IMG/VR virus record: IMGVR_UViG_2939127364_000002
From: a virus
Taxonomy: Duplodnaviria; Heunggongvirae; Uroviricota; Caudoviricetes
DNA length: 42,479 nt
Strand: one strand, 5' to 3'
A program made the position numbers and the translations under genes. Shown here piece after piece: positions 35,844 through 36,544 of the stretch (positions are counted from its first letter, which is position 1; each line of letters starts with the position of its first letter). The notes under the pieces were generated by a model, which was not told the origin of the DNA, searched no databases, and saw only the letters and a program-made list of their open reading frames with translations.

Positions 35844-35867
35844 GGCGTCAGAAATGACGCCTTTTTT
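35844..35867 (+). terminator. Rho-independent terminator after J
   Basis: Stem ggcgtca/tgacgcc with GAAA loop followed by TTTTTTATT. Confidence 0.6.
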
Positions 35868-35891
35868 ATTGCAGAAAAGCGAGAGGTAATT

Positions 35892-36491
35892 ATGCGTAAA
35901 CTTTATGCCGCCATTTTGTCCGCAGCCATTTGTCTGGCCGTATCCGGTGCGCCTGCATGGGCGTCTGAACATCAGTCCACGCTGAGCGCGGGGTATCTTC
36001 ATGCCCGGACGAACGTTCCCGGCAGTGATGATCTGAACGGGATTAACGTGAAATACCGTTATGAGTTTACGGACACACTGGGGATGGTGACGTCGTTCAG
36101 CTATGCAGGAGACAAGAATCGCCAGATTACCCGTTACAGCGATACCCGCTGGCATGAAGATTCCGTGCGTAACCGCTGGTTCAGCGTGATGGCGGGGCCG
36201 TCTGTGCGCGTGAATGAATGGTTCAGCGCGTATGCGATGGCGGGTATGGCTTACAGCCGTGTGTCGACTTTCTCCGGGGATTATCTCCGCGTAACTGACA
36301 ACAAGGGGAAAACGCACGACGTGCTGACCGGAAGTGATGACGGTCGCCACAGCAACACGTCTCTGGCGTGGGGGGCTGGCGTGCAGTTTAACCCGACCGA
36401 ATCCGTGGCCATTGATATTGCTTATGAAGGCTCCGGCAGTGGTGACTGGCGCACTGACGGGTTCATCGTGGGTGTTGGTTATAAATTCTGA
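35892..36491 (+). CDS. lom: Lom outer-membrane protein (Ail/Lom/PagC family)
   Basis: Signal peptide [24 protein letters not shown] then beta-barrel-like sequence ending ...[10 protein letters not shown]. Confidence 0.9.
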
Positions 36492-36518
36492 TTAGCCAGG
36501 TAACACAGTGTTATGACA

Positions 36519-36544
36519 GCCCGCCGGTTCAGGCGGGCTTTTTT
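36519..36544 (+). terminator. Rho-independent terminator after lom
   Basis: Stem gcccgcc/ggcgggc with 6-nt loop followed by TTTTTTGTG. Confidence 0.6.

Follow-up and report, generated by a model that had tools for sequence, protein, structure and literature searches.

A lom cargo gene between two terminator-like hairpins at the J-stf junction of a lambda-like prophage

The window analyzed here is a stretch of 42,479 nucleotides from a tailed virus (Caudoviricetes; IMG/VR record IMGVR_UViG_2939127364_000002), and all positions are counted from its first letter. On the plus strand, J is followed by a 17-nt spacer, a first hairpin (hairpin 1) with its T-run, a leader, lom, a 26-nt spacer, a second hairpin (hairpin 2) and stf. 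The features of this region are as follows.

32343-35825, plus strand: J, gene of the tail-tip host-specificity protein (open reading frame; six Pfam J/tail-tip domains above curated cut-offs)
35843-35870, plus strand: hairpin 1 and T-run (TTTTTTATT), probable backbone intrinsic terminator of the J-stf intergenic region, outside the lom cassette
35871-36543, plus strand: lom cargo cassette, 673 bp, the segment missing from lom-less J-stf junctions
35881-35886, plus strand: GAGAGG, the ribosome-binding site of lom, 5 nt from the ATG (read from the sequence)
35892-36491, plus strand: lom, precursor of an Ail/Lom outer-membrane beta-barrel (Pfam PF06316, 46% identity to lambda Lom, PDB matches)
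36501-36513, unstranded: TAACAC-A-GTGTTA, a perfect palindrome of 13 bp within the spacer between lom and stf, conserved between lambda and the window type
36518-36544, plus strand: hairpin 2 and T-run, probable terminator travelling with lom, ending 11 nt before the stf ATG
36556-37578, plus strand: stf, N-terminal part of the side tail fibre (Pfam phage_tail_N, 1.9e-72)

The open reading frame of lom (35892-36491) encodes a product of 199 aa. Pfam PF06316 (Ail_Lom) spans residues 1-199 of this product and profile positions 1-199 of 199 (E 1.5e-119; 397.3 bits, with a curated cut-off of 23), and this full-length match confirms the assignment of lom to the Ail/Lom family that had been made from the letters of the window. 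Pfam OMP_b-brl was also matched. By inspection of the translation, the N-terminus resembles a signal peptide (24 residues, followed by SEHQ...), and the C-terminus, ...VGVGYKF, ends in an aromatic residue, as is typical for outer-membrane barrels. In the PDB, the window Lom matched the lambda-type Lom of entry 9wso (E 4e-49), whose chain, of 206 aa, is titled 'Outer membrane protein lom'; a literature search found no paper behind this entry. Of the related barrels OmpX, Ail, PagC and Rck, which are encoded by chromosomal or plasmid-borne genes with regulated promoters of their own, the solved OmpX and Ail matched residues 25-199 at about 1e-18. Judged from these matches, the window Lom is very likely an eight-stranded outer-membrane barrel of the OmpX/Ail type. 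Adhesion and serum resistance are the roles reported for the Ail/Lom family.

The GC content is approximately 56% in lom, 46-50% at the 3' end of J and 54-59% in stf, and base composition gives lom no clear foreign signature. An antisense ORF at 35829-36350 has no Pfam match and was taken as spurious. An Rfam scan of the whole window returned one tRNA and nothing at lom.

J ends with the stop codon TGA at 35823-35825. Besides its six Pfam domains it has a sub-threshold fn3 match, and it matches the solved lambda J structures with E = 0. The receptor-binding end of J (34938-35822, residues 866-1160) matched the chain 'A8 gpJ 713' (9wca/9wcb) at 2.6e-229, and the lambda J C-terminal fragment was the poorer match to the same end (5.9e-163). 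The stf product matched the N-terminus of the lambda tail fibre in the PDB at 1.7e-52. The side-tail-fibre region (36556-39492) is split into three ORFs, which are separate proteins in the annotation of close E. coli relatives: an N-terminal one of 340 aa, a second, overlapping one (37553-38914, 453 aa) with a weak FGE-sulfatase/SUMF1-like match, and a tail-fibre-like third one (39112-39492, 126 aa). Three identical short hairpin-like matches on the minus strand at 37110-37206, spaced by 42 nt, indicate a 42-nt (14-aa) tandem repeat within stf. Beyond the tail-fibre genes (40078-42479) lie an IntS-type integrase gene (minus strand), a tRNA gene (41400-41471, minus strand; tRNA-Arg in the annotation of relatives) and a yfdC-like ORF; thus, the tail end of the prophage abuts the argW/intS locus.

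Hairpin 1 reads GGGCGTCA-GAAA-TGACGCC(T) and occupies 35843-35862, with eight base pairs (five of them GC), a 4-nt loop and six T at 35862-35867. In a 35-nt context its folding energy is -14.6 kcal/mol (z -4.75), and none of 200 shuffled sequences folded as well. The T-run is followed by ATT, GCAGAAAAGC and then the GAGAGG of the ribosome-binding site. Hairpin 2, AGCCCGCC-GGTTCA-GGCGGGCT at 36518-36539, has eight pairs (seven GC), a 6-nt loop and six T thereafter, the T-run extending to 36544; its folding energy is -18.2 kcal/mol (z -3.07; 1 of 200 shuffles as good), and GTGGGGTGAAT separates it from the stf ATG at 36556. The two hairpins took ranks 1 and 2 in terminator scans of both 34500-38500 and 34000-42479, which returned 12 sites (4.3 expected) and 21 sites (9.2 expected), respectively. 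The sequence-only reading had lom bracketed by terminators between J and stf, over 35844-36544, and this agrees with both elements within one base. The palindrome upstream of hairpin 2 (36501-36513) is broken in a few variants.

To follow these elements across relatives, approximately 150 loci from IMG/VR with the window-type Lom or the lambda Lom were compared, together with several phage records. The collected loci contain 26 distinct J-lom spacers, across which the GAGAGG site is unchanged, except for AAGAGG in one class. The stem of hairpin 1 occurs as GGGCGTCA/TGACGCC, GGGCACCA/TGGTGCC, GGGCGCCA/TGGCGCC, GGGCACCT/AGGTGCC and, in lambda, as the unrelated CGTCCG/CGGGCG. In the alignment of hairpin 1, 94.2% of the cells were paired, against 38-60% when the partner column was slid, and double-sided changes were observed at three pairs (GC to AU or the reverse in nine rows, CG/UA in seven and AU/UA in four). 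The covariation score of 0.292, against 0.155 for shuffles, was reached by none of 500 shuffles, a control that ignores relatedness; the slid controls account for relatedness and agree with it. The pairing of hairpin 1 is under selection.

Hairpin 2 is nearly invariant: 96.5% of its cells were paired, 8 of the 13 single-sided changes keep a G-U pair, and no compensatory double change was found among the aligned relatives. For this stem we observed conservation alone, and its support comes from its position. A hairpin with a T-run lies approximately 10 to 15 nt before the stf start in Gifsy-1, in E. albertii and in the lom-less E. coli phage PhiR12_2_star as well, with stems of unrelated sequences. 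The T-runs are invariant across variants, with six T after each stem.

Many weak hairpin-plus-T sites turn up in simple scans of the window DNA, and on this ground hairpins 1 and 2 might be thought to be chance inverted repeats without function. However, both are the top-ranked sites of the region, the changes in stem 1 are compensatory, and the element before stf keeps its place even where the stem is unrelated; the probability that chance explains them is close to negligible.

In two loci with a variant J-lom spacer (L047 type in IMG/VR, corresponding to window 35849-35856), the loop and closing pair of hairpin 1 are exactly inverted, CAGAAATG having become CATTTCTG. This looks like an inversion of the hairpin tip that left the stem intact.

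The ends of the lom cassette were set by aligning the two spacers of the window with two lom-less junctions (L189 and L180). In the lom-less junction, hairpin 1-TTTTTTATT is joined directly to TGTGGAGTGAATATG, which comprises the ribosome-binding site and the start of stf. In the window, the arrangement is hairpin 1-TTTTTTATT / GCAGAAAAG...lom...hairpin 2-TTTTT / TGTGGGGTGAATATG, followed by stf. The cassette begins with a 21-nt leader that contains the ribosome-binding site, continues with lom and the 3' spacer, and closes with hairpin 2; its two ends lie at the T-runs. An exact-pattern scan found the lom-less junction in 86 IMG/VR stretches; all 80 lom-less stretches that were fetched had kept hairpin 1, lacked the Lom motif upstream and had stf downstream. 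The same junction is present in 1171 of 5426 E. coli genomes. Hairpin 1 is found without lom; therefore it is part of the backbone, and hairpin 2 alone moves together with lom. The proposal that both terminators are lom's own consequently fails for the upstream one, which is the resident terminator of the J-stf junction.

Even lom alleles that have diverged are identical in their 3' end and spacer, a pattern that fits allele exchange by recombination at this end.

The gap between the T-run of hairpin 1 and the lom ATG (35868-35891) had been put forward as the place of a lom promoter. It measures 24 nt including the ribosome-binding site, and thus a -35/-10 pair with a leader cannot fit. A consensus promoter scan of the plus strand over 34500-35892 returned no site. 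A position-weight scan with hexamer frequencies taken from textbooks, covering the canonical sigma-70 model, returned no site above 0.9 bits with its -10 ending within 45 nt of the lom ATG. In the 500 bp upstream of lom, the highest score was 7.3 bits, a value equalled or exceeded by 104 sites in the window. Thus, neither the 21-nt 5' arm of the cassette nor the 24-nt gap showed a sigma-70-like promoter for lom, and the 500 bp upstream gave none that stood out from background; a promoter within the gap is highly improbable.

Three other candidates were rejected. ATGAAA-17-CAGTAT (35790-35818) scores 5.8 bits, which equals background, and lies inside the J coding sequence. The conserved TTTATAACCC after the J stop was considered as a -10 element; inspection found no usable -35 at 16-18 nt (best 0.9 bits), and it was rejected because a transcript started there would run into hairpin 1. 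A sigma-54-like TGGxxC...TTGC across hairpin 1 has, by inspection, a spacing 3 nt too long. In lambda, the hexamers TATTAT/TATAAA follow the hairpin without a -35 (4.5 bits). The lom of short-tailed Stx phages has a promoter candidate of 10.7 bits in an AT-rich region 60 nt before its ATG.

These results bear on the possibility that lom is a moron complete in itself, with a promoter of its own in the gap (35868-35891), its own pair of terminators and independent transcription in the lysogen. A promoter and a terminator of their own define morons (PMC3594210), lambda lom has been reported as expressed in lysogens (PMC7067206, PMC1151598), and lom of the 933W/Phi24B type, with the 10.7-bit candidate, is expressed in a manner uncoupled from induction (PMC3342100). 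On the other side, the 24-nt gap is occupied by the ribosome-binding site, no site exceeds 0.9 bits near the ATG and none rises above background within 500 bp, hairpin 1 occurs without lom and hence is not lom's own, and the 5' arm of the cassette is just 21 nt. We therefore regard a self-contained transcription unit as very unlikely for the window allele. Of the term moron, the accessory presence and absence of the gene at a fixed site and the downstream terminator of its own can be retained; a promoter is not detectable.

The window contains the elements of a late operon of the lambda type, together with further hairpins in its intergenic regions.

14167-14790, plus strand: Q-like late antiterminator gene (PHROG phrog_127 'anti-termination protein Q-like', E 1.2e-82)
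14833-14861, plus strand: pR'-like late promoter TTGACT-17-TAAATT (promoter scans; sequence read)
14896-14929, plus strand: tR'-like terminator just downstream of pR', 13-bp stem and T-run (-20 kcal/mol, z -5.2)
16484-16504, plus strand: hairpin and T-run after Rz (terminator scan)
20314, plus strand: weak hairpin and T-run after the large terminase gene
25279, plus strand: hairpin and T-run before the major tail gene (terminator scan)
26719, plus strand: hairpin and T-run before the tape-measure gene (terminator scan)

With 14.2 bits, the pR'-like site has the highest position-weight promoter score in the whole window. PR' is constitutively active but its transcription is terminated just downstream in lysogens, from which Q releases it (PMC7547250). 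Since stf is located past the two lom hairpins and nothing resembling a promoter was found before it, the late polymerase would have to read through both. We infer this Q-dependent read-through to stf from gene order and from the established biology of Q. In the same late operon, at least four or five further intergenic sites with a hairpin and a T-run are found on the sense strand. The sequence-only reading took flanking terminators as a mark of independent expression, and this does not hold, because similar hairpins are common in the same Q-antiterminated operon. A Rha/antirepressor-like ORF (16616-17170), between the spanin and small terminase genes, lies directly behind the hairpin at 16484-16504; the late operon may have a further cargo position here.

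Alternatively, the hairpins may mainly be RNA elements, that is, barriers of stability or processing that set the ratios of the J, lom and stf messages, and not terminators. The Q-modified polymerase would not terminate at hairpin 1, yet its pairing is selected, and the hairpins before the major tail gene and the tape-measure gene are similar. However, the invariant run of six T after each stem would be needless for a pure barrier against 3'-exonucleases, and a role in RNA stability is compatible with termination in the lysogen. We consider it unlikely that this is the main function of the hairpins.

Published data on lom expression differ. Lambda lom and bor have been listed with cI and rexAB as genes expressed in the lysogen (PMC7067206; PMC1151598, citing Reeve and Shaw 1979). 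In an array study, lambda lom was undetected in lysogens, and its authors remark that the promoter of lom is little known (PMC2147009). Expression of the Phi24B lom, which has a different gene context, was similar in lysogens and induced cells (PMC3342100). As a gene, lom has been scored as dispensable for plaque formation (PMC10695390). For the lom allele of the window, we put the odds of expression in stable lysogens at about even.

Taken together, our preferred reading, to which we assign a probability of roughly 0.7, is that lom is promoter-less cargo behind a backbone terminator, transcribed late in a Q-dependent manner and confined by the hairpins in the lysogen. The accessory cassette (ribosome-binding site, lom and intrinsic terminator) would sit immediately 3' of the T-run of the resident J-stf terminator. 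During lytic growth, polymerase from pR', modified by Q, would pass tR', the two lom hairpins and the remaining intergenic hairpins without stopping, and J, lom and stf would be carried on one late message, as lambda Q biology and the gene order suggest. In the lysogen, unmodified polymerase would stop at the hairpins: hairpin 1 may shield lom from stray transcription of the tail genes, and hairpin 2 may keep lom transcripts out of stf and beyond. Any expression of lom in the lysogen would need a weak or non-canonical start hidden in the sequence.

A stricter possibility is that lom of the J-lom-stf type is essentially a late gene, expressed solely or for the most part from the Q-antiterminated pR' transcript once the prophage is induced, and that any signal in lysogens comes from spontaneously induced cells. 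No promoter was found, the cassette is too small for one, unmodified polymerase would be stopped by hairpin 1, lom points the same way as the two late genes that closely flank it, and lambda lom gave no signal in lysogens in one array study (PMC2147009), all of which would fit. However, expression of lambda lom under repression has been reported from labelling experiments of older date and from a second array study (cited in PMC1151598, PMC7067206), and the lambda spacer differs from that of the window (TATTAT/TATAAA after the hairpin), so that the alleles may behave differently. We hold this possibility to be a serious one, though improbable compared with the promoter-less cargo cassette described above.

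Tandem intrinsic terminators beyond lambda J, the t'J series, were reportedly described by Luk and Szybalski in 1983; they are said to be overridden by Q and to stop unmodified polymerase. The two hairpins of the window are proposed to behave in this way and may be equivalent to the t'J series, which is a lead and not a result.

Lambda itself (lom, NP_040601) has the same J-lom-stf order. Its Lom (206 aa, against 199 aa in the window) is a different allele, with 46% identity to the window Lom and an identical stretch of the C-terminal 23 residues. The lom-stf spacer and hairpin 2 are nearly identical in the two. Between J and lom, lambda likewise has a hairpin and a T-run, at the same 29-nt distance to the ATG; the stem, however, is unrelated in sequence and has six pairs in lambda and eight in the window, and the hexamers TATTAT/TATAAA after the hairpin are present in lambda and absent from the window.

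The morons of Hendrix and colleagues, such as HK97 gene 15 (PMC3594210), resemble lom in being extra genes present or absent among close relatives, in lying inside the late operon with an intrinsic terminator of their own after the gene, and in encoding a cell-envelope product not needed for plaques (for lom, PMC10695390). Unlike such morons (PMC3594210), lom has no detectable promoter, its 5' arm is 21 nt, and its GC content is not clearly deviant.

The short-tailed Stx phages (933W, Phi24B and P13374) also carry a lom of the Ail/Lom family, with an intrinsic terminator (ACCCGCTGTGATGGCGGGTTTTTT) after the gene, and the product is 42% identical to the window Lom over three quarters of the protein. 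In contrast to the window gene, it does not lie between J and stf and has no upstream terminator; the region upstream is AT-rich with a plausible promoter, and expression is independent of induction (PMC3342100). The Phi24B small RNA 24B_1, located 'between lom and vb_24B_43', was set aside as a counterpart: it lies in another spacer, of 428 bp, which is absent from lambda according to the authors (PMC4426718).

A 1-kb stretch around lom matched 236 phage records and 4844 of 5426 complete E. coli genomes, with a query coverage of at least 80% in 3816 of the 5426. The 199-aa window-type allele is the commoner one in databases. Thus, lom between J and stf is an ordinary and very common prophage cargo that is already known; it is textbook lambda biology, annotated in thousands of genomes, and has little importance beyond annotation. 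What the locus offers is a caution against the use of flanking terminators as a sequence-only marker of cargo expressed in the lysogen, since such hairpins are common in a Q-antiterminated operon, and a refinement of the same marker: here the upstream hairpin is a backbone element, and no promoter is visible in the cargo cassette.

Cargo other than lom was found in the same slot. In Gifsy-1 (L165, 2205-2447), an ORF of 80 aa lies between J and stf, with a hairpin and T-run on each side; its product has an apparent signal peptide and matched nothing in Pfam. It can be speculated that the J-stf junction of lambda-like tails is a dedicated cargo slot, defined by the T-runs of terminators, into which promoter-less cassettes (ribosome-binding site, gene and terminator) are swapped, such as the lom alleles and the small secreted protein of Gifsy-1. 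Expression of the cargo in the lysogen would then be set by leakage through the upstream terminator, a form of attenuation, or else this lom allele would be a late gene acting in the envelope of the dying cell. We regard this broader proposal as rather doubtful at present. A scan of genome contigs for more distant J-X-stf junctions returned mostly lambda contamination and Escherichia/Shigella loci, and the cargo survey is a small one.

Lambda-identical stf/lom sequences were encountered in assemblies labelled Leeuwenhoekiella, Pseudomonas, Desulfosporosinus, Shewanella, Oceanobacillus, Kitasatospora and others. Coverage of the contigs concerned (L171-L179, L181-L183, L185, L186, L188, L190, L191 and L193) is approximately 1x, and some of these contigs are approximately 48.5 kb long; contamination with lambda DNA almost certainly explains the lambda-identical sequence in these assemblies.
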